A stretch of DNA of 64,000 nucleotides from an archaeon. Its GTDB lineage: Archaea; Nanobdellota; Nanobdellia; Pacearchaeales; GW2011-AR1. The notes below the pieces were generated by a model. It ran no database searches. It was not told the origin of the DNA and saw nothing but the letters and a program-made list of their open reading frames with translations. Both the position numbers and the translations under genes were made by a program. Of the stretch, positions 16,990-64,000 are shown one piece after another. Position 1 is the first letter of the stretch. Each line of letters opens with the position of its first letter. Where the stretch lies: contig JABHSE010000004.1 in assembly GCA_018697035.1 (NCBI GenBank), forward strand, positions 63,122 through 127,121, read 5' to 3'.

Positions 16990-18063
16990 ATGGTAGATCA
17001 AAGAACAATACAATTAGCAAAACTAGTAGTAGACTATGCATTAAAAGTCAAAAAAGGAGAAAATGTAATACTATCAGGCGGAATCGAAGCCGAACCATTC
17101 CTGCTATCCCTCTACAAAGAAGTTGTCCTAAGAGGCGCCCACCCAGACTTCCGAATCAATATCAGAGAAACCGCACCTTTCTTTTTCAAACATGCACAAC
17201 CTCATCAAATCGAAAAATTTCCAGATTCATTCAACTACCAAGTCAAAAACGCACAAAAATACGTAGGTATACTAACCGACACCAATACTCGTAGCCTAGC
17301 AAATTCCGACCCAAAAAAAATGACAGCACGACAAAAAGTAATCAAACCAATATCAACCTACATCTGCAACGGAAAACCATACATCCAAAGAAGCTCCGTC
17401 GCCTACCCCTGTCAAGCCCTAGCGCAAGATGCAGAAATGAGCCTAACGGATTACGAAAACTTCGTCTACGGAGCATGTCTCCAGGATTGGGACAAAATCG
17501 GGAAAGAGATGAATGAAATCTTAGAAATATTTAAACAAGGAAAATCAGTTCACCTAATCGGCGAAGGCGTAGACTTAAAGTTCCAAATCAAAGGCTCATT
17601 AGCAAAATCAGATCTCGACGGAGAAAACATCCCAATGGGAGAAGTCTTCATGGCACCAGTTAGAGAATCACTAAATGGCTGGATAAAATTCGACTATCCA
17701 GCAATAGAAGCATCAAAAGAAGTAACTGATATTTACCTAAAGTTCAAAGACGGAAAAGTAGTAGAAAGCTCAGCTTCAAAGAATGAAGATTTCCTAAAAG
17801 AAATGTTATCGGCAGACGAAAACGCTTCCTACGTAGGAGAATTCGGAATAGGTATGAATCCAAAAGTCAACAAGTTCACAAAGAATTTATTATTCGACGA
17901 AAAAATGGGTGGAACAATTCACCTAGCCCTAGGAGCAGCCTACAAAGAAAACGGCGGCGGCAACGACTCAATAATCCACTGGGACATAGTCAAAGACATG
18001 AGCAAAGCAAAAATAATTCTAGATGGGAAAATTGTTCAAGAAAACGCAAATTGGAAAATTTAG
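16990..18063 (+). CDS. aminopeptidase, M29 (AmpS/PepS-like) family
   Basis: Length and motifs GEFGIGMNP, GGTIHLALG and IHWDIV match thermophilic metalloaminopeptidases. Confidence 0.8.
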   Translation: MVDQRTIQLAKLVVDYALKVKKGENVILSGGIEAEPFLLSLYKEVVLRGAHPDFRINIRETAPFFFKHAQPHQIEKFPDSFNYQVKNAQKYVGILTDTNTRSLANSDPKKMTARQKVIKPISTYICNGKPYIQRSSVAYPCQALAQDAEMSLTDYENFVYGACLQDWDKIGKEMNEILEIFKQGKSVHLIGEGVDLKFQIKGSLAKSDLDGENIPMGEVFMAPVRESLNGWIKFDYPAIEASKEVTDIYLKFKDGKVVESSASKNEDFLKEMLSADENASYVGEFGIGMNPKVNKFTKNLLFDEKMGGTIHLALGAAYKENGGGNDSIIHWDIVKDMSKAKIILDGKIVQENANWKI

Positions 18064-18131
18064 CTATATTTAATCTTAGCTCACCAGAGATACCTAAAGG
18101 GTTAAAAACCAAATCACTTTCACACCAATAC

Positions 18132-18292
18132 GCTCCGTTAGTCTAGTGGCCAAGGATGCCGCCCTCTCAAAGAGGTGGAAAGCCCTCGTCGGTGAGACAA
18201 CGGCTTTATGTTCGCTTGAACAACCACTTGAATCTCTCCTGAGATTCTTTTGGAGAACGGCGGTGACCCGGGTTCAAATCCCGGACGGAGCG
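18132..18292 (+). tRNA. tRNA-Glu(CUC) with a roughly 88-nt intron at the canonical anticodon-loop position
   Basis: Hand fold: acceptor GCTCCGT/ACGGAGC, D arm GTCT-AGTGGCCAA-GGAT, anticodon stem CCGCC/GGCGG, loop CTCTCA.., T arm CCGGG-TTCAAAT-CCCGG. The intron is about 18170-18257, with BHB-like pairing CTCT/GGAG. Confidence 0.8.
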
Positions 18293-48205: not shown

Positions 48206-49366
48206 TTATTTTTTATTTTTTTCCAAAATCTCTTTTTGAGAAAACATCTCCTCAACCCCACTCCCCATATCCCGAACCTTAAACTCACCCTTAGCAACCT
48301 CATCCGCCCCAACAAAAACAACCTTCCCAATCCCTTTAGAATCAGCATACTCCAATCCCTTCCCAATCGCCTTATCCATCAACAACACCGTCCGAATTCC
48401 CTCTCCCCTCAACCTCTCCGCCAAATCAACCGCCTCCACATCACAACCAAGCGACAAAACCAAAACATCAACAGCACTCCCTTCAATTTTCGACAACAAA
48501 CTAATCGGCTCAAACCCAAGCGCAATACCAAAAGCCTGAACATCATCAACCATATAAGCCCCACCTCCAGCAAGAGAAACCCCCAACTCATCACTCCAAA
48601 TCTCAACCACAGTCCCATTATAATACGAAAGTCCCCTAGCCAAAAAAGGCCGAAACTCCGGCGTCACACCATACATCTTACAAAGCTTCTTCAACTCTTT
48701 AATTTCACCATAAAACTTATACTTCTCAAAATCCTTCCCAGTGAAAATCTTCAACACCCTCTCGCAACCAATGCTCTTCAAATTATCAGCAACATCCTTC
48801 ACCGACAACTTATCCAACTTATCAATCTCACGAATCGCCTGATCTCTAACTTTCTCATCAACTCCCTCGCTAACCAGAATCTCATTAATCAACCTACGAT
48901 TATTAAAGTAAATCTTAACCGGCATCTCAAGCTTCTCAAAAATACCAGACATCATCTTCAAACACTCAGCCTCATCCTTCATGCTCGAACCAACAACATC
49001 CGCATCCGCCTGAGTAAACTCCCGACTCCTCCCTTTCCGAATCGCCTCATCTCGAAAAACACTTCCAATCTGAAACCTCTTATACGGCAACTTCTGATTC
49101 TTCGCCAACCTCTTCAACTGAAACGTAAACTCAAACCTCAACGCCAACTTCCGCTTTCCCCTATCACTCAAACGGAAAACATCCCGAACAGCCTCGTCGT
49201 TAGCATTATCCCCAACAACAAAATCCTCTCTCTCAATAATCGGGCTCTCCGCAATCTCAAAACCATAAGTCTCAAACTCTCTCTGAATAATCCCCCGAAT
49301 CACCGCACGCTTCGCCGCCTCAGCCCCGACAAATTCATTAAACCCCTTAACTATTCTCGAACTCAT
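48206..49366 (-). CDS. HisRS paralog 1 (class II HisRS fold plus anticodon-binding domain; motif 3 Arg not conserved)
   Basis: FRDEAIRKGRSREFTQADADVVG (motif 2), ARGLSYYNG, GGGAY, but GIALGFEPI where HisRS normally has G.GleR. Confidence 0.8.
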   Translation of the reverse strand: MSSRIVKGFNEFVGAEAAKRAVIRGIIQREFETYGFEIAESPIIEREDFVVGDNANDEAVRDVFRLSDRGKRKLALRFEFTFQLKRLAKNQKLPYKRFQIGSVFRDEAIRKGRSREFTQADADVVGSSMKDEAECLKMMSGIFEKLEMPVKIYFNNRRLINEILVSEGVDEKVRDQAIREIDKLDKLSVKDVADNLKSIGCERVLKIFTGKDFEKYKFYGEIKELKKLCKMYGVTPEFRPFLARGLSYYNGTVVEIWSDELGVSLAGGGAYMVDDVQAFGIALGFEPISLLSKIEGSAVDVLVLSLGCDVEAVDLAERLRGEGIRTVLLMDKAIGKGLEYADSKGIGKVVFVGADEVAKGEFKVRDMGSGVEEMFSQKEILEKNKK

Positions 49367-50382: not shown

Positions 50383-50454
50383 GACGGTTGTAGTTCAATG
50401 GTAGAATGTATGGTTGTGGTCCATGAGACGCGGGTTCGATTCCCGCCTTCCGTC
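50383..50454 (+). tRNA. tRNA-His(GUG) copy 1, with encoded G-1
   Basis: G-ACGGTTG-TA-GTTC-AATGGTA-GAAT-G-TATGG-TTGTGGT-CCATG-AGAC-GCGGG-TTCGATT-CCCGC-CTTCCGT-C. T-T oppositions at 5:68 and 6:67. Confidence 0.8.
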
Positions 50455-50534
50455 CTTTTTCTAGAATTGAATGAAGTTCGATTGAAGACATTTCAATGTC
50501 GAATGCCCGCAGGCCAAGCCTTCCGTCTAAAACC

Positions 50535-52175: not shown

Positions 52176-53162
52176 CTAAATCAACTTCCGAACCCGCTCA
52201 ACCAAATCCGGCCTAACATAATAATGCAACGTCACATCAGACGAATTCTCCCATTCACCCTTAACGATTTTCTTATGCCCCAACTTCTCCGCCAACCCCA
52301 AACAAAACACTCCAACATTGCCCTTATTCTTCTTAGCCAAAAACTTCTCGACCTCTCTAGTCGCAAAATGCGACCGAACAATATGCGGATAAAACCTCTC
52401 CCCACAAAACCTCTCAAATCCAGCCTCAAACTCAACATCCCCAAAAGGTCTCCCCTTACTATTCAAAAAAACAAAATCATCCATCTTCCTCTTGCCCAAA
52501 ACTCGTTTCAACTCAGAAACAACCCTCTCTCCAAAAATCTCTTCAATAACCTGCGGAACCCCATCCTTCCCAATAAAACTAAACCGAACCTTCTTTCCAC
52601 TAATCTGAATATCTTTTTTCTTAAGAGTAGTCAATCCCTTATGTCTACTCCTCTTATAGTAAACCTCACTCCCAACCCTCATCTTCGTCTTAAGCAAAAC
52701 CAACATTGCAAGAACTAACTCACTCGTTCCAAGCGCCTTCATTAAATTTCGGCGAAGCCTAGGTAAACATTTCTCAAAATCATCAACCAACTTAAACTTC
52801 TTATCTTTAGAGATCTTCATCTTATCCAAACTATAAATATAACAAAGACTACCACTGGGATTCTCAAAAATAACGTCCCAATGTCCATGCGACTTCTCAT
52901 CATGAATTGCCAACTTAGAAGCAAACAAAGGAAACGCCTTGTTTAACTTCGTGCCATCGGGCAAAATCCCAATTCTTTTTCCAATACTCCTCCCCTTGCA
53001 AAATCCCCCCATCAAAAAATCTCCATCTCGAATCATCTTCAAATTCCCATGCTTCTTAAAAAGTTGAGCAACAGTCATAGCCTCCGGAAATTTAACCTTA
53101 GATTTCCGACCTCTTTCATCAACAACAGCCAAATCAGAAAACCGAATCCTATAACACCTCAT
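52176..53162 (-). CDS. type IB DNA topoisomerase (small poxvirus/bacterial-like form)
   Basis: MRVGSEVY...GLTTLKKKDI...V.FSFIGKDGV, IVRSHFAT, LGH, and a C-terminal ..TLHYYV candidate catalytic Tyr. Confidence 0.65.
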   Translation of the reverse strand: MRCYRIRFSDLAVVDERGRKSKVKFPEAMTVAQLFKKHGNLKMIRDGDFLMGGFCKGRSIGKRIGILPDGTKLNKAFPLFASKLAIHDEKSHGHWDVIFENPSGSLCYIYSLDKMKISKDKKFKLVDDFEKCLPRLRRNLMKALGTSELVLAMLVLLKTKMRVGSEVYYKRSRHKGLTTLKKKDIQISGKKVRFSFIGKDGVPQVIEEIFGERVVSELKRVLGKRKMDDFVFLNSKGRPFGDVEFEAGFERFCGERFYPHIVRSHFATREVEKFLAKKNKGNVGVFCLGLAEKLGHKKIVKGEWENSSDVTLHYYVRPDLVERVRKLI

Positions 53163-54059: not shown

Positions 54060-55241
54060 CTAATGATAATGAGGATGCTCAGAAGTCTCTGCACATTTAT
54101 CATTCACAACATCCATCTCCAAAACACTCTCGTCCCCACTAACCATATCCTTCACCTTAAACACCCCACTCTCAACTTCCTGTTTCCCAACAAAAACCAC
54201 CTTCCCAAACTCATACGCATTAGCATACCCAAGCGCCTTACTAGGTTTACCATAATTCACAGAAACAATCTTACCCTGCTCCCTAAGTTTTTGAGCCAAT
54301 TTAATAGCAACATCATCTTCTCCCAAAGACACAATCAAAAATTTATCTTGAACACTCTTGAGCTTAGCAATCAAAAACAACCTATCCAATCCCATAGAAA
54401 TTCCCGTACACTGAACGTCGTTGAAAATATAACTTCCACCTCCAGTAATCGTTTCCTTAATACCCTCACCCTTAATCTCAAACACAGAACCGTTATAATA
54501 ACTAAGTCCCCTAATCGTCGTCGGTGAAAAAACAATCCGAAGCCCATACTTCTTACAATAATTAATCAACTCAAGCACTTCTTTATACGACTCAAATTTT
54601 TCAAAGTAATCTTCACCCTCATTAAACCTATCAATAATTCCCTCAACCCCAAAAGGCCTAAGGTTATCCCGCAACTCATCCTCAGGCAATTTATCAAACT
54701 TATCAATCTCACGCATAACCTGGTCCCTGTCTTTATCATCCACACCAAAGTCTTCCAAGATTTCATTCATAAGTTTACGGTTATTAATCAGCACAGTCGG
54801 AGTAATTCCAATACCCCTCAAAATCTCAGACACAACCACAAGAGTCTCAGCCTCGTCCTTAACAGTAGAACCCACAGTATCAATATCACACTGCACAAAC
54901 TGCCTAACCCGATTCCCCGAAACTGGCTCATCTCTAAAGACCGGTCCAACAGCAAACCTCTTGTAAGGAAGTTTCTTTCCCTGCATCAATCGCTTTAAAG
55001 GAAAAGTCATTTCATATCTAAGCGCCAAGTCCCTATCTCCCTTATCCTTCAATCTAAAAATATCCGAAACCGCTTCATCATCAGTATTATCTCCCTGAAC
55101 AAACTGCCTACTTTCAATTATAGGAGTGTCCACAGGAGAATACCCATACCTAGTAAAAGTATCAACAATAATTTTCCTTATAGCCTCTCGCTTAATCGCA
55201 TCTTCGCCTTCATAATCCTTAAATCCCTTAACAGTATCCAT
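54060..55241 (-). CDS. hisS: histidine--tRNA ligase (paralog 2; start trimmed to MDTVKGF)
   Basis: Motif 2 FRDEPVSGNRVRQFVQCDIDTVG, IRGLSYYNG, GGGSY, motif 3 GISMGLDRL, and an anticodon-binding domain. The track N-terminal extension overlaps a tRNA. Confidence 0.85.
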   Translation of the reverse strand: MDTVKGFKDYEGEDAIKREAIRKIIVDTFTRYGYSPVDTPIIESRQFVQGDNTDDEAVSDIFRLKDKGDRDLALRYEMTFPLKRLMQGKKLPYKRFAVGPVFRDEPVSGNRVRQFVQCDIDTVGSTVKDEAETLVVVSEILRGIGITPTVLINNRKLMNEILEDFGVDDKDRDQVMREIDKFDKLPEDELRDNLRPFGVEGIIDRFNEGEDYFEKFESYKEVLELINYCKKYGLRIVFSPTTIRGLSYYNGSVFEIKGEGIKETITGGGSYIFNDVQCTGISMGLDRLFLIAKLKSVQDKFLIVSLGEDDVAIKLAQKLREQGKIVSVNYGKPSKALGYANAYEFGKVVFVGKQEVESGVFKVKDMVSGDESVLEMDVVNDKCAETSEHPHYH

Positions 55242-55253
55242 CTTGTCCTCCAA

Positions 55254-55326
55254 GGCGGAAGGCGGGAATCGAACCCACATTATACGGACCACAACCATAT
55301 GTACTAACCATTATACTACAACCGCC
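55254..55326 (-). tRNA. tRNA-His(GUG) copy 2, with encoded G-1, 12 nt upstream of hisS
   Basis: Reverse complement: G-GCGGTTG-TA-GTAT-AATGGTTA-GTAC-A-TATGG-TTGTGGT-CCGTA-TAAT-GTGGG-TTCGATT-CCCGC-CTTCCGC-C. Confidence 0.8.
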
Positions 55327-57892: not shown

Positions 57893-59407
57893 TTATATAT
57901 CTAATTTAACCCCCCTTTCAATAATATCTAATATTTCATTATTCCTTATTAAACTATTGATTTTCGCTAAATCAATTCTAAACTCCCTGTCGTTATCGAT
58001 ATAAGGACTTACCTCTCGAATTTTATTATGCACCAATTGAGCAATCATACTTCCCTCTTCAATATTTCTTAATTCCAACGCCTGAACCGAACACATATAC
58101 AAAATAGAAATTATTTCTTCCACATTATGGATTATATCTCTCGCCTTCCTTGCACCTATAGTTCCCATACTCACGTGATCCTCCTGATTTGCACAAGTAG
58201 GAATAGAATCCACGCTCGACGGATGCGCCAACACCTTATTCTCAGAAACCAATGCAGCCGCGACATATTGAGGAATCATCAATCCACTATTCAATCCACT
58301 TTCTTTTACTAGAAACGCCGGAAGGCCTTCATTCAAATTAGGATCAAGCATTCTAAAAATAATCCTCTCAGAAAGATTACCTAATTCACTTATTGCAATA
58401 CCCAAGAAGTCGGCGACTAGCGCTATTGGCTGCCCATGAAAGTTTGCGCCAGAAATTGCCTTTCCCTCAAAAATCAAAGGATTATCTGTTGCAGAATTTA
58501 TTTCCGTTTCCACAACTCCCTTAATATATTTAACAGAATCCAACGATGCGCCAATAATTTGTGGCAATGCCCTAAGGCTATAAGCGTCCTGCACCTTCGT
58601 CGTCGAATCAATCAATTTACTCCCTTCAATCAATTTGGAAATAATAGACGCACATCTTCCCTGCCCAAAATGAGGTCTCGCCAAATGAATATTCTCATTC
58701 AAAGCAACACTACAACCCTTCAATGATTCCAAACTCAACGAACTCGCGATAAGAGTATTCTTAATCAAATTCTCAGAATCATGTATATTAAGAGCCATTA
58801 TAGCAGTCATCACCGTCGTCCCATTATTCAAAGCCAAGCCTTCCTTAAAGCTCAATTTTATAGGAGAGAGCCCTGCATACAAAAGTGCCTCCTTTCCCGA
58901 CATACGCTGACCATTAAACATCGCCTCTCCTCTACCAATCATTACCAGAACCATATGTGAGAGAGGAGCAAGATCCCCACTAGCACCAACAGACCCCTTC
59001 TCAGGAATAATTGGATGAACACCCCTATTCAACATATCAACCAACAACTGCACCGTACTCAGACGTATACCAGAAAATCCCTTAACAAAAGTATTAATCC
59101 TAATCAACATAACAGCCCGAACAATGTCCTCAGACAGAGGCTCACCAACCCCAACCGCATGACTCTTAATCAAATTCTCCTGAAGCTTCTCCACATCTTC
59201 CAACGGAATCGAAACATTAGACAAAGAGCCAAAACCCGTAGTCAAACCATAAACAGATTCTCCTTCAGAAATCATAGTTTCAACATAATTTCGAGAACGA
59301 TTAATTTTACCAACAGATTCCTCTGGAAGCTCAACGACATAATTATTTCTAGAAACATCAACAACGTCTTTTACTGAAAGATTTAATCCGTTTAACTGGA
59401 CTTTCAT
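57893..59407 (-). CDS. hutH: histidine ammonia-lyase (MIO enzyme)
   Basis: GSVGASGDLAPLSH contains the Ala-Ser-Gly MIO-forming triad. About 504 aa. Confidence 0.85.
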   Translation of the reverse strand: MKVQLNGLNLSVKDVVDVSRNNYVVELPEESVGKINRSRNYVETMISEGESVYGLTTGFGSLSNVSIPLEDVEKLQENLIKSHAVGVGEPLSEDIVRAVMLIRINTFVKGFSGIRLSTVQLLVDMLNRGVHPIIPEKGSVGASGDLAPLSHMVLVMIGRGEAMFNGQRMSGKEALLYAGLSPIKLSFKEGLALNNGTTVMTAIMALNIHDSENLIKNTLIASSLSLESLKGCSVALNENIHLARPHFGQGRCASIISKLIEGSKLIDSTTKVQDAYSLRALPQIIGASLDSVKYIKGVVETEINSATDNPLIFEGKAISGANFHGQPIALVADFLGIAISELGNLSERIIFRMLDPNLNEGLPAFLVKESGLNSGLMIPQYVAAALVSENKVLAHPSSVDSIPTCANQEDHVSMGTIGARKARDIIHNVEEIISILYMCSVQALELRNIEEGSMIAQLVHNKIREVSPYIDNDREFRIDLAKINSLIRNNEILDIIERGVKLDI

Positions 59408-59537
59408 ATTGAACCAGTATGTTTTAGGTTTATAAGAATTGTTGTGATATAAAGCAGTTCAAAAGTAAAATATGATTTTCTGTTACGAGTGTTCTCAACA
59501 CAAACTTTAAAAGTAAAAATCAATCTACTAAACACAT

Positions 59538-59576
59538 GCGCCTATAGTCTAGTGGCCAAGGATGCTGCCCTTTCAC
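59538..59576 (+). tRNA. tRNA-Glu(UUC) 5' half only (acceptor 5' strand, D arm, anticodon 5' stem and loop)
   Basis: GCGCCTA-TA-GTCT-AGTGGCCAA-GGAT-G-CTGCC-CTTTCAC, near-identical in architecture to tRNA-Glu(CUC) at 18132. I found no GGCAG, T arm or TAGGCGC downstream in the window. Confidence 0.6.
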
Positions 59577-59656
59577 AGTGGAGTACCTAAAGGGTATACT
59601 ACCCTGACAACCTTTATAAAGGAAGAACTCCTGTTATATTTGGAAAAATAAATCAA

Positions 59657-60889
59657 ATGGGAATTAATGATATTACTAAAAATGAAAATGAATGGAGAAA
59701 GTTAAAAGAAAATAATTATAATTTAAAAAATCTAAATCAAAAAAATAGATCGATAACTTCAGATTTTCTAAAAGATTTTGAACTTGGAATCAACACTCCA
59801 CCAAAAAAACGGGGAGCAAGAAAACCCGGAACGCTTTTGAAATTGAGATATTTTCTTGTTTCTCTAAACAGGCACTTTCCTAAAAAAACATTTATTAATT
59901 TAACAAAAGACGATTTACATTCGTTATGTGAAAACATGTTTCAAGGCACAATAAAGACGTGTAACGGAAGAATCTACAAAGATGTTGGAGAAGTTGTGAA
60001 AAATCTTAAAACTTTTTTCAGATGGGCGGAAAGAACCTCTAACATAAATGAAAGCATAGTAGAAGACTTGTCAGCCGCTTCTTATAAAAGGTCTAAGCCT
60101 GCCTGGACTTATCTTGAGCATGCCGATATAAAGAAATTAATTGATAGTGCAAATGCCACATATAAGCCTCTTATGGTTTTCCTCTATGATTCAGGTTTGC
60201 GTCCAGAAGAGGCCATCAGAATAAAAGTGAGTGATTTCGAATTTTCTTCCGATGGCCCAGCAATCTTAAACATTCCAGAAATTCGAGGAAGTGGCATGAG
60301 AGTTTCTAAAACATTTGAGAGGACGATCAAATTGATGAACAGTTCAAATCAAATCAAAAATTATATAGAACTTAATGGATTAAAGTCCAATGATTTACTA
60401 ATTCAAAAAAGAAGATTGATGTTTAATAGATATCTTAAAAGATTGGCCTTAAAATTATTTGGCAATATGAAGACAAAAGCCAGGGGCGAAATTAAAGATA
60501 TCAATATGTACGCATTTAGACATTGGTCTTCGATTTATTGGTTAGATCGATATAAGACAAATAAAGATTTGATGTATAGAATGGGTTGGAAGAACGAGAA
60601 TAAAATCCTTTATTATTCAGAATTTTTAGGAAGAAGAGATAAAATTGACGATGAGGATATGCTTACAATCGAGGATAAGAACAAGTATGAAAAAGATATA
60701 GAAAAGTTGGAAAAACAAGAAATTCAAAATTTTGAATTGCTTAAAAAACTCTCTGCCATCACCCAAGTGCTACTGAAAGCGGCTATGGAAGATGAAACCA
60801 CAAAAGAAAGTTTGAAGAAACAGCTTATCAGGATTACCCTTGAGGGAGCTGAAACAAATCACTTGCAAGTGATTTCCCCTCCTCATTAA
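59657..60889 (+). CDS. tyrosine recombinase / phage-type integrase
   Basis: GLRPEEAIRIKVSDF (Arg I region), YAFRHWSSIYWL (R-H box), MGWKN..ILYY (candidate catalytic Tyr). Confidence 0.8.
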   Translation: MGINDITKNENEWRKLKENNYNLKNLNQKNRSITSDFLKDFELGINTPPKKRGARKPGTLLKLRYFLVSLNRHFPKKTFINLTKDDLHSLCENMFQGTIKTCNGRIYKDVGEVVKNLKTFFRWAERTSNINESIVEDLSAASYKRSKPAWTYLEHADIKKLIDSANATYKPLMVFLYDSGLRPEEAIRIKVSDFEFSSDGPAILNIPEIRGSGMRVSKTFERTIKLMNSSNQIKNYIELNGLKSNDLLIQKRRLMFNRYLKRLALKLFGNMKTKARGEIKDINMYAFRHWSSIYWLDRYKTNKDLMYRMGWKNENKILYYSEFLGRRDKIDDEDMLTIEDKNKYEKDIEKLEKQEIQNFELLKKLSAITQVLLKAAMEDETTKESLKKQLIRITLEGAETNHLQVISPPH

Positions 60890-61376
60890 CCCAATAATAC
60901 CGTTTTCTATCCTTGCCCATCTCAGTTTCAACCAATCCCTTTTTCATCAACTCTTTAAGAATACTCTTGGTGCTTATCCGCGAGAGACAGGGGTTCAGAT
61001 GCGAGGATTTTATACGAATCTCCTCAGAAGTACGCCTCACAGGATTTAACAATAATGTTTTCAAAACAACATATCTTTGCCGGGGACTTGCGGATATCCA
61101 TCCAATCAAATCATAATCTTTTTTGATTTTTTGAACAGGGATTGAAATTTCGAGCAGTTTCCTGGCTTTATTCGTCAAAACATAAAGTTTGCCCTTGTGT
61201 CCTTCAGGATTAAGGCATTTTATAGTTCCCCGTTTCAAGTACGGTTTAAGATTAAATTTATCAACACAAAGCTCATTCATAACTTGTGTCGGTGTTTTAG
61301 GAACAGAAAATGAAGAAAGAAGTTGAATGTTTTTTGGTCGATTTATCCAATTGATCAATTTCTTTTCCCCCATCAA
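60834..61376 (-). CDS. winged-helix DNA-binding protein
   Basis: Two wHTH-like segments (..TPTQVMNEL..; RRTSEEIRIKS..NPCLSRISTKSILKELMKKGLVE). Its 3' end overlaps the integrase 3' end by 56 nt. Confidence 0.5.
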   Translation of the reverse strand: MMGEKKLINWINRPKNIQLLSSFSVPKTPTQVMNELCVDKFNLKPYLKRGTIKCLNPEGHKGKLYVLTNKARKLLEISIPVQKIKKDYDLIGWISASPRQRYVVLKTLLLNPVRRTSEEIRIKSSHLNPCLSRISTKSILKELMKKGLVETEMGKDRKRYYWVNEEGKSLASDLFQLPQG

Positions 61377-61746: not shown

Positions 61747-63042
61747 ATGTATATAGCAAATCAGATAATAGAGGATGCGAGAAGAGAGTTCCTTGACGAA
61801 TGTGATTTTGTGTTGAGGCTTCCCTCAGCAATTGTTTTGAAGGGTCATGATAAAAAAATACTTTTTAGAGAGGTTATTTGTATTCCAAAATATTTCTATA
61901 TTGGGATAAAGGAAAATCATGGATATTTTGATATAGAAGAAAAATGCATTAGGTCAAATTTAAATACGGGTTCAGATTATGAATTAAAGGAATCGGACTG
62001 GGAGACATTAGAAGGTCGCTATCTTCTCTCACTAAAATCATTTTATATTACCATATTCGAAGATCATCCAGTTATTGCATTACTTAAGTTTAAAAAAACC
62101 ACTTTTCAAAGACTTTTTCAATGCAAATTAAAGATTTGGTCTGATATTCCCAAAAAATCATATCTTTTCTATCCCGATATCACATCCCTATCTATCATTT
62201 TATATTTATTTGAGAATACAATCTCTTTTGAGGATTTTAATGTTCATAAAGAACAATATAAAAATATTTTAAAAAATGAAAAAATGAATATTATGAATAT
62301 TACGCCTTCAGTTAGACAGAAATTAAATGAAACAGAAAATTACTCATACAATTTTTTTACTGACATTTTAATGCTTCCATTCTATTTTAATCTGGGTTTC
62401 AATGAAAGGGCGGCTGCATTTTATTCATTGCTCGGAGAACCTTTATCAGATGTTGAACAGTCATACAAGGCTTCTCCTGAAATGATGAGGTTTGAGCTTC
62501 CAAGCACTGGAGAAACAAGATTAGATGAAGACTTCACTTCACCTCTTTCGCTTATAATACCTTCAACAGACTATGCGACCCCTGAGGAATTTATAGGATA
62601 TATAAATAAAGCGATTAATAATAAAAAAATGATAATTAGATTCTATAAAAATATATTAAGTGATGATAGTATTGCAGTTGTCAATTTAGATATAAAGCTG
62701 GAAGATTTTTTTGAGCCAGTTCTTTCAAAATTTTTCCCTAAGAATTTACTGAGCTTTGAGCTTAGCACAAAGAAATATGTCAAGAAGCCTGTGTGTTTTT
62801 CTGACCTAAACTATACTGAGTCTAACTCAATAAAAATTTCATATAGTTCCCCCCATCTCTTGCTAAGAGGGCCATTATCTGATTTGAGAAATATTACGAA
62901 CTCAATAATTAAATTTAATAAGGGAACGGTCCAATATATTGATTCTCCTATTGATGGGAAAGGATCAGGAGGAGCGAAATTTTTAACCGAGGAAGAATAC
63001 AAGTTGTGTTACTCGCCAATAAGGAGGACTAAGGCACCATGA
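61747..63042 (+). CDS. unknown protein, element cargo paralog A
   Basis: 431-aa ORF sharing FL(D/N)ECD.V...P, YIGIKEN.G.F..EEK and CK.KIWS(D/E)IP..SY with the next ORF. Confidence 0.6.
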   Translation: MYIANQIIEDARREFLDECDFVLRLPSAIVLKGHDKKILFREVICIPKYFYIGIKENHGYFDIEEKCIRSNLNTGSDYELKESDWETLEGRYLLSLKSFYITIFEDHPVIALLKFKKTTFQRLFQCKLKIWSDIPKKSYLFYPDITSLSIILYLFENTISFEDFNVHKEQYKNILKNEKMNIMNITPSVRQKLNETENYSYNFFTDILMLPFYFNLGFNERAAAFYSLLGEPLSDVEQSYKASPEMMRFELPSTGETRLDEDFTSPLSLIIPSTDYATPEEFIGYINKAINNKKMIIRFYKNILSDDSIAVVNLDIKLEDFFEPVLSKFFPKNLLSFELSTKKYVKKPVCFSDLNYTESNSIKISYSSPHLLLRGPLSDLRNITNSIIKFNKGTVQYIDSPIDGKGSGGAKFLTEEEYKLCYSPIRRTKAP

Positions 63043-63095: not shown

Positions 63096-64000
63096 GATAA
63101 CTTATGTCGATATCTCATGAAATTGATCTTGATCGAAGAAGTTTTTTAAATGAATGTGATGTTGTTTTTCAAATTCCGGGAACTTTCAATTTAGAAGAAG
63201 AATCTATTCTGAAATGGGAACAAGAAGTTATCTGTGCATCAGTATTTTCTTATATTGGAATTAAAGAAAACAACGGGGAATTTGAGTTTGAAGAAAAATA
63301 CTTAAATATATTGAGTTTTACAGTAGAACAAGACGATTTTAAGGGATTAACAAAACAAATAGATAATGACGCAAAAAATGGTATAAAGAATCGTTTTTTG
63401 GCCTTGGAAAAAAATTCTTATATTCAAAACTTAAATATAAACAAGAGCACTTTTGAACGATTTAAAAAATGTAAAATTAAAATTTGGTCCGAAATTCCCC
63501 CGGGATCTTACATCCGAAAATGGGATTGTTCTTTTGTGGCATTATATTTCTTTTGTATTGAAAACAAAATTCCTTTTGAAAAGCTCAATCGCGAGATAGA
63601 GACATATAAAAAATTATTGCGTCGCTTAGAATTAAAAATTGATATCCTGAATATTCACCATGCAAAATCTATTTCGTTGACTGAAGCGGAAGAAAAAGCA
63701 TGCAAAATTATAATGAGATTATTTGAGTATCTCGTATTATTTGAATCTGCTCTTGATCTTAAAGTGGACTTCAGCTCTTTCTGTCCTTTATTAGGACCAA
63801 TTTTTTTGAATAATCAATCTTCCAAGTATAATATTTCAGAAGCAATGATTTTTCATTTACCCATTTCGGAGAAAAAGGAATATTTCTCTCCATTCGTTTG
63901 GCAGTGGAAAAACGATGATTACCTCAACTATGTCAACAAATTAGTTAACGATAAAAAGCTAAGAATTGGTCTAAAAGAGAACCCATTGGAATACTCGGAG
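63096..64000 (+). CDS. unknown protein, element cargo paralog B (partial; runs off the window)
   Basis: Absent from the ORF track. ATG at 63096 is preceded by GGAG. My translation is MSISHEIDLDRRSFLNECDVVFQIPGTF...YIGIKENNGEFEFEEKY...CKIKIWSEIPPGSYI..., open to the window end. Confidence 0.6.

Follow-up and report, generated by a model that had tools for sequence, protein, structure and literature searches.

Integration that leaves a tRNA gene broken is established experimentally for actinobacteriophages. In the tRNA-dependent lysogeny of Fionnbharth and other Cluster K4/L phages (Guerrero-Bustamante & Hatfull 2024), the phage and bacterial attachment sites (attP and attB) have about 10 bp in common, the tRNA gene is not rebuilt, and the loss is complemented by a phage-borne tRNA of matching isotype; integrases with a long, reconstituting core also exist among close relatives, such as that of Boilgate (PMC10865867). 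Prophage Lj965 of Lactobacillus johnsonii is grouped with these phages here as the closest known system. For archaea, a review of tyrosine recombinases describes integrations that restore an uninterrupted tRNA gene (PMC8371274). No archaeal case of tRNA-dependent lysogeny was found in the literature searched, where the titles listed among papers using the term concern bacterial phages or non-archaeal topics. The locus described here is a half tRNA-Glu(UUC) gene followed by int1, a tyrosine recombinase gene, in a 64,000-nucleotide stretch of archaeal DNA (contig JABHSE010000004.1; hereafter the window, whose positions are used throughout). In the reading that we favor, with a probability of about 0.65, an element carrying int1 would have cut the host gene without rebuilding it and would compensate for the loss with a complete tRNA of its own. 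This model is drawn from sequence comparison.

A half tRNA-Glu(UUC) gene beside int1

The junction and its immediate surroundings comprise six features.

59505..59513, + strand: archaeal TATA box CTTTAAAAG assigned to the host tRNA-Glu(UUC) gene, whose tRNA starts ~25-33 nt further downstream
59538..59576, + strand: 5' part of the host tRNA-Glu(UUC), nt 1-38, the probable host side of the left junction (attL); 39/39 identity to the intact tRNA in contigs L006-L009
59566..59576, + strand: common core TGCCCTTTCAC (3 bp of anticodon stem plus the 7-nt loop), found both in the host tRNA and in the related elements' attP
59577..59612, + strand: putative right arm (P') of the attachment site, AGTGGAGTACCTAAAGGGTATACTACCCTGACAACC, including a hairpin at 59591-59605; homologous to the right arms of related elements L103, L109, and L110
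59613..59622, + strand: TATA-like box TTTATAAAGG of the integrase gene, in near-invariant columns when the window is aligned with L103, L109, and L110
59657..60889, + strand: int1, a 410-aa tyrosine recombinase of a divergent archaeal-element family (PF00589, PHROG_1)

Window positions 59538-59576 read GCGCCTATAGTCTAGTGGCCAAGGATGCTGCCCTTTCAC. A scan with the first 37 nt of this fragment identified an intact, intron-less tRNA-Glu(UUC) of 73 nt in four JGI metagenome contigs (L006-L009). Its sequence is GCGCCTATAGTCTAGTGGCCAAGGATGCTGCCCTTTCAC continued directly by GGCAGTGACCCGGGTTCAAATCCCGGTGGGCGCG, and it is called by Rfam (64 bits) and by ARAGORN. The fragment is identical to its 5' part (39/39 nt, 100% identity, BLAST E = 2e-17), which bears out the tRNA-Glu(UUC) 5' half proposed in the first-pass annotation of the window. 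In standard numbering it holds nt 1-38, comprising the acceptor strand, the D arm, the anticodon 5' stem CTGCC, and the full 7-nt loop CTTTCAC. The break therefore falls after nt 38 (38/39), one nucleotide past the canonical 37/38 intron site at which it had first been placed, and it coincides with the boundary of identity between attP and attB. The box CTTTAAAAG stands at an equal upstream distance in L006, L007, and L009, with the variant CTTTATAAA in L008, and presumably acts as the tRNA promoter.

Sequence was read across the window and the next 19 kb of the source contig, ~83 kb in all, of which 23.5 kb lie right of the junction. The 3' acceptor strand of the intact host-type gene is TGGGCGC (with a U6-G67 pair) and not the TAGGCGC sought in the first pass. 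Searches that allowed for TGGGCGC detected no tRNA 3' half in the window, as the first-pass annotation had reported, nor in the following 19 kb (to window-equivalent 83050). No tRNA is called at the 59538 site by ARAGORN or by the Rfam covariance models (E <= 10), so no long intron was missed. Intact tRNA-Glu(UUC) of the host type was met only in contigs without synteny to the window. The 5' half has no match in scans of GTDB genomes or IMG/VR, and the 3' half and the attP pattern have none in the IMG/VR scan. The same junction occurs in long source-type contigs (up to 546 kb) from several independent assemblies, with five contexts listed among 24 contigs; it is therefore neither a chimera nor a minority variant. 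GAA accounts for 43% of Glu codons in host ORFs (open reading frames), and standard wobble rules do not predict that a CUC anticodon reads GAA. The host therefore needs a UUC tRNA.

The open reading frame 80 nt after the junction, already called an integrase in the first pass, encodes a tyrosine recombinase with matches to PF00589 (30.1 bits, cut-off 27.1) and PHROG_1 (E = 3.5e-21). Eleven family members all share R182, Y285-x-x-R288-H289, W311, and Y319/Y320, and K218 is near-invariant among them. The gene is complete and lies outside the attachment site. Its family comprises about 100 homolog clusters in the protein collection. No homologs were identified in the PDB or in annotated phage or annotated plasmid records (searched with tblastn for phages and plasmids), and a scan of IMG/VR with the family gave a single irrelevant match at 25%.

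Attachment sites and tRNA genes of related elements

Genomic context was examined for eight members of the int1 family, seven of which have integrases 58-84% identical to int1: P0216 (L103-105), P0222 (L109), P0219 (L110), P0220 (L113), P0223 (L111/112), P0225 (L114/115), and P0227 (L106). All seven share one module, consisting of a small conserved ORF, an intact tRNA-Glu(UUC) on the strand opposite int, a spacer of 80-725 nt, an imperfect palindrome, and int. The palindrome, which lies upstream of int in all seven, is ~60 nt long in this element family, and its center copies the host-type anticodon stem-loop only, as in TGCCCTTTCACGG (L103), TGCCCTTTCACGGCAGTG (L109), and CTGCCCTTTCACGGCAG (L111). 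Cores matching this stem-loop are 13 nt long in L103 and L106, 14 in L113, 16 in L110, 17 in L111, and 18 in L109. Identity with the tRNA spans 11-18 nt only in the relatives' attP, and nothing of the acceptor or D arm appears in their left arms. Left and right arms form inverted repeats (e.g., GGGCAGTATACCCTA ... TAGGGTCCACTGCCC), and intact sites fold as one long hairpin centered on the loop 7-mer, with energies of -35.9 kcal/mol in L103 and -34.1 kcal/mol in L111.

The junction was aligned with L103, L109, and L110, which have the same orientation and integrases 77-84% identical to int1. The window is colinear with all three from TGCCCTTTCAC through the right arm and the TATA-like box to the int start at ATGGGAAT, with equal spacing. 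Left of the core, the relatives carry the arm ATTAAGGGCAGTGTACCCAAAAGGTTATG, of which the right arm is the inverted-repeat partner in L103, L109, and L110, whereas the window carries the host tRNA and its promoter. It is on this difference that the window appears to show attL and the relatives attP. The core is 11 nt long in the window, and the right arm is not tRNA-like. The sequence after the break, described in the first pass as unrelated to the tRNA gene and as forming a 6-bp hairpin, does contain that hairpin but corresponds to an attP right arm conserved in the relatives. By this alignment strand exchange must have taken place within TGCCCTTTCAC, and positions 59538-59576 are very probably an attL formed at the anticodon-loop core. 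Of the three explanations first offered, an element integrated at the anticodon loop is strongly supported by these comparisons, as the right flank matches the right arm of an attP seen intact elsewhere. TTTATAAAGG is likely the int promoter. As all seven relatives are unrecombined, the window is the only integrated example.

The intact tRNA-Glu(UUC) genes of the seven relatives score 57-65 bits with Rfam. They lie about 90-130 nt from attP in six of the elements and ~725 nt away in L113, where a ParE module stands between. They are nearly identical across elements whose integrases are only 62-84% identical. Their acceptor stems read GCTCCGA/TCGGAGC in L103/L110/L111-type elements versus GCGCCTA/TGGGCGC in the host type, with variants of their own in L109 and L106, and they also differ from the host type in the anticodon stem. 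With these differences the element tRNA would not be a target of the element's own integrase. Element genes are found on both sides of the relatives' tRNA-Glu(UUC), so the tRNA genes belong to the elements, a possibility that the first pass had not foreseen. The small conserved ORF that precedes them has no counterpart in the 83 kb. On the simplest reading, the element replaces the tRNA that it destroys. More distant family members have an intact tRNA followed by int, as in L007 (36% integrase identity), with tRNA-Glu 190 nt upstream of the integrase, and L107 (50%), with tRNA-Asp. This classical arrangement suggests that the short-core type was probably derived within the int1 family.

These observations can be combined into a mechanism. 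An element of at least 23 kb with int1 would have recombined its attP into the anticodon loop of a single-exon host tRNA-Glu(UUC) gene, with the 7-nt loop as the likely overlap region, the two arms as integrase-binding half-sites, and strand exchange at the loop borders. Because attP lacks the tRNA 3' half, integration would cut the gene in two and rebuild no intact copy. The promoter and nt 1-38 would stay at attL beside int1, and the far junction would join the 3' half to the left arm of the element. A replacement tRNA would be expected at the far end of the window's island, where a complete element tRNA-Glu(UUC) could compensate for the lost host gene and keep the host viable.

The int1 system resembles that of the actinobacteriophages in its tyrosine integrase, in a core whose length does not allow the tRNA to be rebuilt at either junction, and in having long-core family members (Boilgate there, L007 and L107 here). 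It differs in its archaeal host and in the divergence of the int1 family, whose match to PF00589 is marginal (30 vs 27 bits). The int1-family core is an anticodon stem-loop within a long palindromic attP, and the relatives' element tRNA adjoins attP on the opposite strand. The int1 element also looks plasmid-like or integrative (HerA/FtsK-like ATPase, defense cargo) and not like a tailed phage. With classical anticodon-loop integration (Williams 2002 class I; the SSV1 overlap region is the anticodon loop) it shares a symmetric anticodon stem and 7-nt loop as core and a tRNA fragment that marks the island end, and with pNOB8-type elements an intact integrase gene adjoining the junction. In classical sites, however, attP carries the tRNA from the crossover to the 3' end and regenerates the gene, whereas the relatives' attP carry only the stem-loop.

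Alternative explanations

Several observations weigh against the favored reading. All seven relatives show an unrecombined site, in a palindrome that we infer to be attP. The 23.5 kb right of the junction contain no 3' half, no second copy of the core, and no element tRNA-Glu; the far end of the island lies beyond. The direct repeat and other element end that the first pass proposed to locate were not encountered in this interval, and the absence of a replacement tRNA there is a further difference from the actinobacteriophage system. No empty site was found: all five contexts listed (of 24 contigs) with the gene that adjoins the fragment on its left, for a histidine/phenylalanine ammonia-lyase (HAL), also carry int1, and the GTDB scan contained no close relative genome. 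The island is also composite. It has defense genes and a second integrase of bacterial type, apparently with its own tRNA-Phe attP, and this second integrase gives the island a composite history.

An unlikely alternative is a reconstituting integration of the pTN3 type, in which attP held the whole 39-nt 5' half, the fragment is a displaced direct repeat, and an intact tRNA-Glu(UUC) stands at the far end. Integrases of the pTN3 kind in archaea have documented 5'-half attB sites, and integrations in archaea are stated in the review to restore the tRNA (PMC8371274). As in pTN3 of Thermococcus, one junction of the integrated archaeal element retains a 5' tRNA half, and the unseen far end of the island could hold an intact copy. 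The attP of pTN3, however, holds the 5' half inside int, which is split on integration as the tRNA is restored. By contrast, int1 is intact and outside the attachment site, and the attP of the seven relatives (one with an integrase 84% identical) lack the 5' half, with only 11-18 nt matching the tRNA and neither acceptor nor D arm. A reconstituting element would also have no need of the separate whole tRNA-Glu found in the relatives. A similar comparison applies to the tRNA-Thr fragment model of Caldiarchaeum (Sugahara 2012, PMC3293823), in which a mobile-element recombinase likewise stands beside a tRNA fragment, but there the tRNA gene has been reconstituted and the fragment next to it is a direct repeat. 

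Secondary decay, in which the tRNA was once rebuilt (as in L007), the 3' half was later deleted, and another tRNA-Glu(UUC) serves the cell, is quite improbable. It draws on L007 and L107, where an intact tRNA-Glu and tRNA-Asp, respectively, precede int. No deletion is needed to explain the junction, however, as colinearity with the attP right arms begins exactly at the core and spacing to the int start is equal, and every one of the closest relatives has the short core. The dead tRNA considered in the first-pass annotation is accurate insofar as this copy is disrupted, but in no other sense.

We consider it very doubtful that the fragment belongs to a functional split tRNA, with halves transcribed separately, annealed through the attachment-site arms, and joined by splicing endonuclease and ligase as in Nanoarchaeum equitans. 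The likeness to the tRNA-Glu of that species is a 5' half with its own promoter, which is kept here, ending at the anticodon loop. Since the arms are inverted repeats, the 5'-half trailer and a 3'-half leader would be complementary; a modeled dimer forms acceptor, anticodon, and arm helices; and the host has tRNA splicing machinery, given its tRNA-Glu(CUC) intron. Against this, the 83 kb yielded neither a 3' half gene nor a complementary leader or any reverse-complement match to the trailer, and the break is at 38/39 and not 37/38. The modeled junction (dot-bracket read by eye, with a proxy left arm that was borrowed or guessed) is a large loop with two CUUUCAC copies and no obvious bulge-helix-bulge. 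The complete replacement tRNA in all relatives also argues that a split gene is not functional. The genuine split tRNA first suggested for this locus has thus gained no positive support.

Contigs of some assemblies do break inside the fragment (L004 starts at GTCTAGTGG), but an assembly chimera or chance tRNA-like sequence is practically discounted, since the same junction occurs in long contigs (up to 546 kb) of several independent assemblies, among the contexts listed for the 24 contigs, and a 39/39 match has E = 2e-17.

The island, its host flank, and significance

Three further element genes begin within the window.

60834..61376, - strand: winged-helix regulator, 179 aa, overlapping the 3' end of int1 (weak HTH_45/PadR matches)
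61747..63042, + strand: element gene, 431 aa, of no known family
63104..64000, + strand: first part of a 783-aa gene of the element, which continues past the window edge

Rightward from the junction, the gene order is int1, the winged-helix regulator, several ORFans, a HerA/FtsK-like ATPase, ParE, an HTH_17 protein, the second integrase, BrxR, DUF4007, and a BrxC-like protein, and the element extends to at least window-equivalent 83050. The island is mobile, with defense cargo. The regulator has 68% identity to a 179-aa gene in L103 and has equivalents of equal position and strand in L111, L113, and L114. Other genes right of int1 that are homologous to those of the relatives encode 94-aa and 155-aa ORFs, the HerA-like ATPase, and a 446-aa ORF. 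The HerA/FtsK-like ATPase is encoded by two overlapping ORFs (299 and 358 aa) at window-equivalent 66932-68904 (L010 15186-17158) and in L111, and by a single ORF of 648-653 aa in L103 and L110; the two-ORF form may be a frameshift or a genuine split. Defense genes of the source island are located at L013 18302-21104 (window-equivalent about 80.2-83.0 kb) and code for BrxR(WYL), DUF4007, and a BrxC/PglY-like protein of 1159 aa. Defense cargo in the relatives includes HamA, a helicase, and ParE in L113 (139-3689) and a ThsB-TIR protein in L109 (46-609).

The second integrase (367 aa) is of bacterial type and ~60% identical to Desulfobacterales integrases. Directly after its stop is a minus-strand, bacterial-type tRNA-Phe(GAA) 3' half with encoded CCA (L013 11116-11380; window-equivalent about 73062-73326), which sits between two exact 18-nt direct repeats, GGGCACAATTTAGGCACA. 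This looks like the unrecombined attP of a bacterial element inside the archaeal island. A tandem-element model, with a second attachment-site copy between the int1 and int2 modules, was ruled out, as no tRNA-Glu-like sequence occurs there; across the 23.5 kb right of the junction there is no tRNA, 5'-half copy, 3' half, or trailer complement. Contig ends in two assemblies would place the far end of the island at ~97.3-97.45 kb; this is weak, other ends being common too, and was not used as evidence.

On the host side, housekeeping genes left of the fragment include HisRS, tRNA-His, and a topoisomerase. The best GTDB matches to the HAL gene (57893-59407, - strand) come from Clostridia and other bacteria, at <=54% identity, with none archaeal among the best 80 of at least 600 matches; the gene probably represents an inter-domain transfer. 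A search for the empty site by HAL synteny in GTDB was uninformative because HAL is of bacterial origin, the best matches being those Clostridia. Two tRNA-His(GUG) genes (50384-50455, + strand; 55253-55326, - strand) and two HisRS paralogs of 386 aa (about 48206-49366, - strand) and 412 aa (about 54060-55298, - strand) are found within 7 kb, which would be unusual redundancy if the archaeon has the small genome presumed here. The start called for the 412-aa paralog overlaps one of the tRNA-His genes. A 328-aa gene with a eukaryotic-type topoisomerase IB domain (PF01028) is also in the host part of the window (about 52176-53162, - strand).

The intron-containing tRNA-Glu(CUC) that the first pass had placed at 18132 is real (18132-18292, Rfam 46.4 bits), with an intron of ~88 nt at the canonical position; it was missed by ARAGORN and found only by the Rfam model. 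The right-arm 12-mer TACCTAAAGGGT recurs exactly at 18091-18122, 30 nt upstream of this gene, and is followed by CTTTCAC. There are no element remnants nearby, an aminopeptidase gene ends at 18063, and the recurrence is probably due to chance.

A tRNA fragment as an attachment site is ordinary; archaeal elements that do not reconstitute their target and carry a tRNA are unusual. A fragment beside an integrase is usually a plain attachment-site repeat, and here the relatives' attP indicate that the target is not rebuilt. The locus is relevant to the proposal that disrupted tRNA genes arise through integration. Should the very doubtful split-tRNA explanation be true, the locus would be a present-day snapshot of Nanoarchaeum-type split tRNAs arising from mobile-element integration. 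If the favored reading of cutting and replacement is true, integration would still yield separated tRNA halves with complementary flanks, the starting material proposed for split tRNAs. An uncharacterized archaeal element family (about 100 integrase clusters) would then use a strategy described in 2024 for actinobacteriophages, and its elements would make themselves indispensable by replacing the host tRNA-Glu(UUC).

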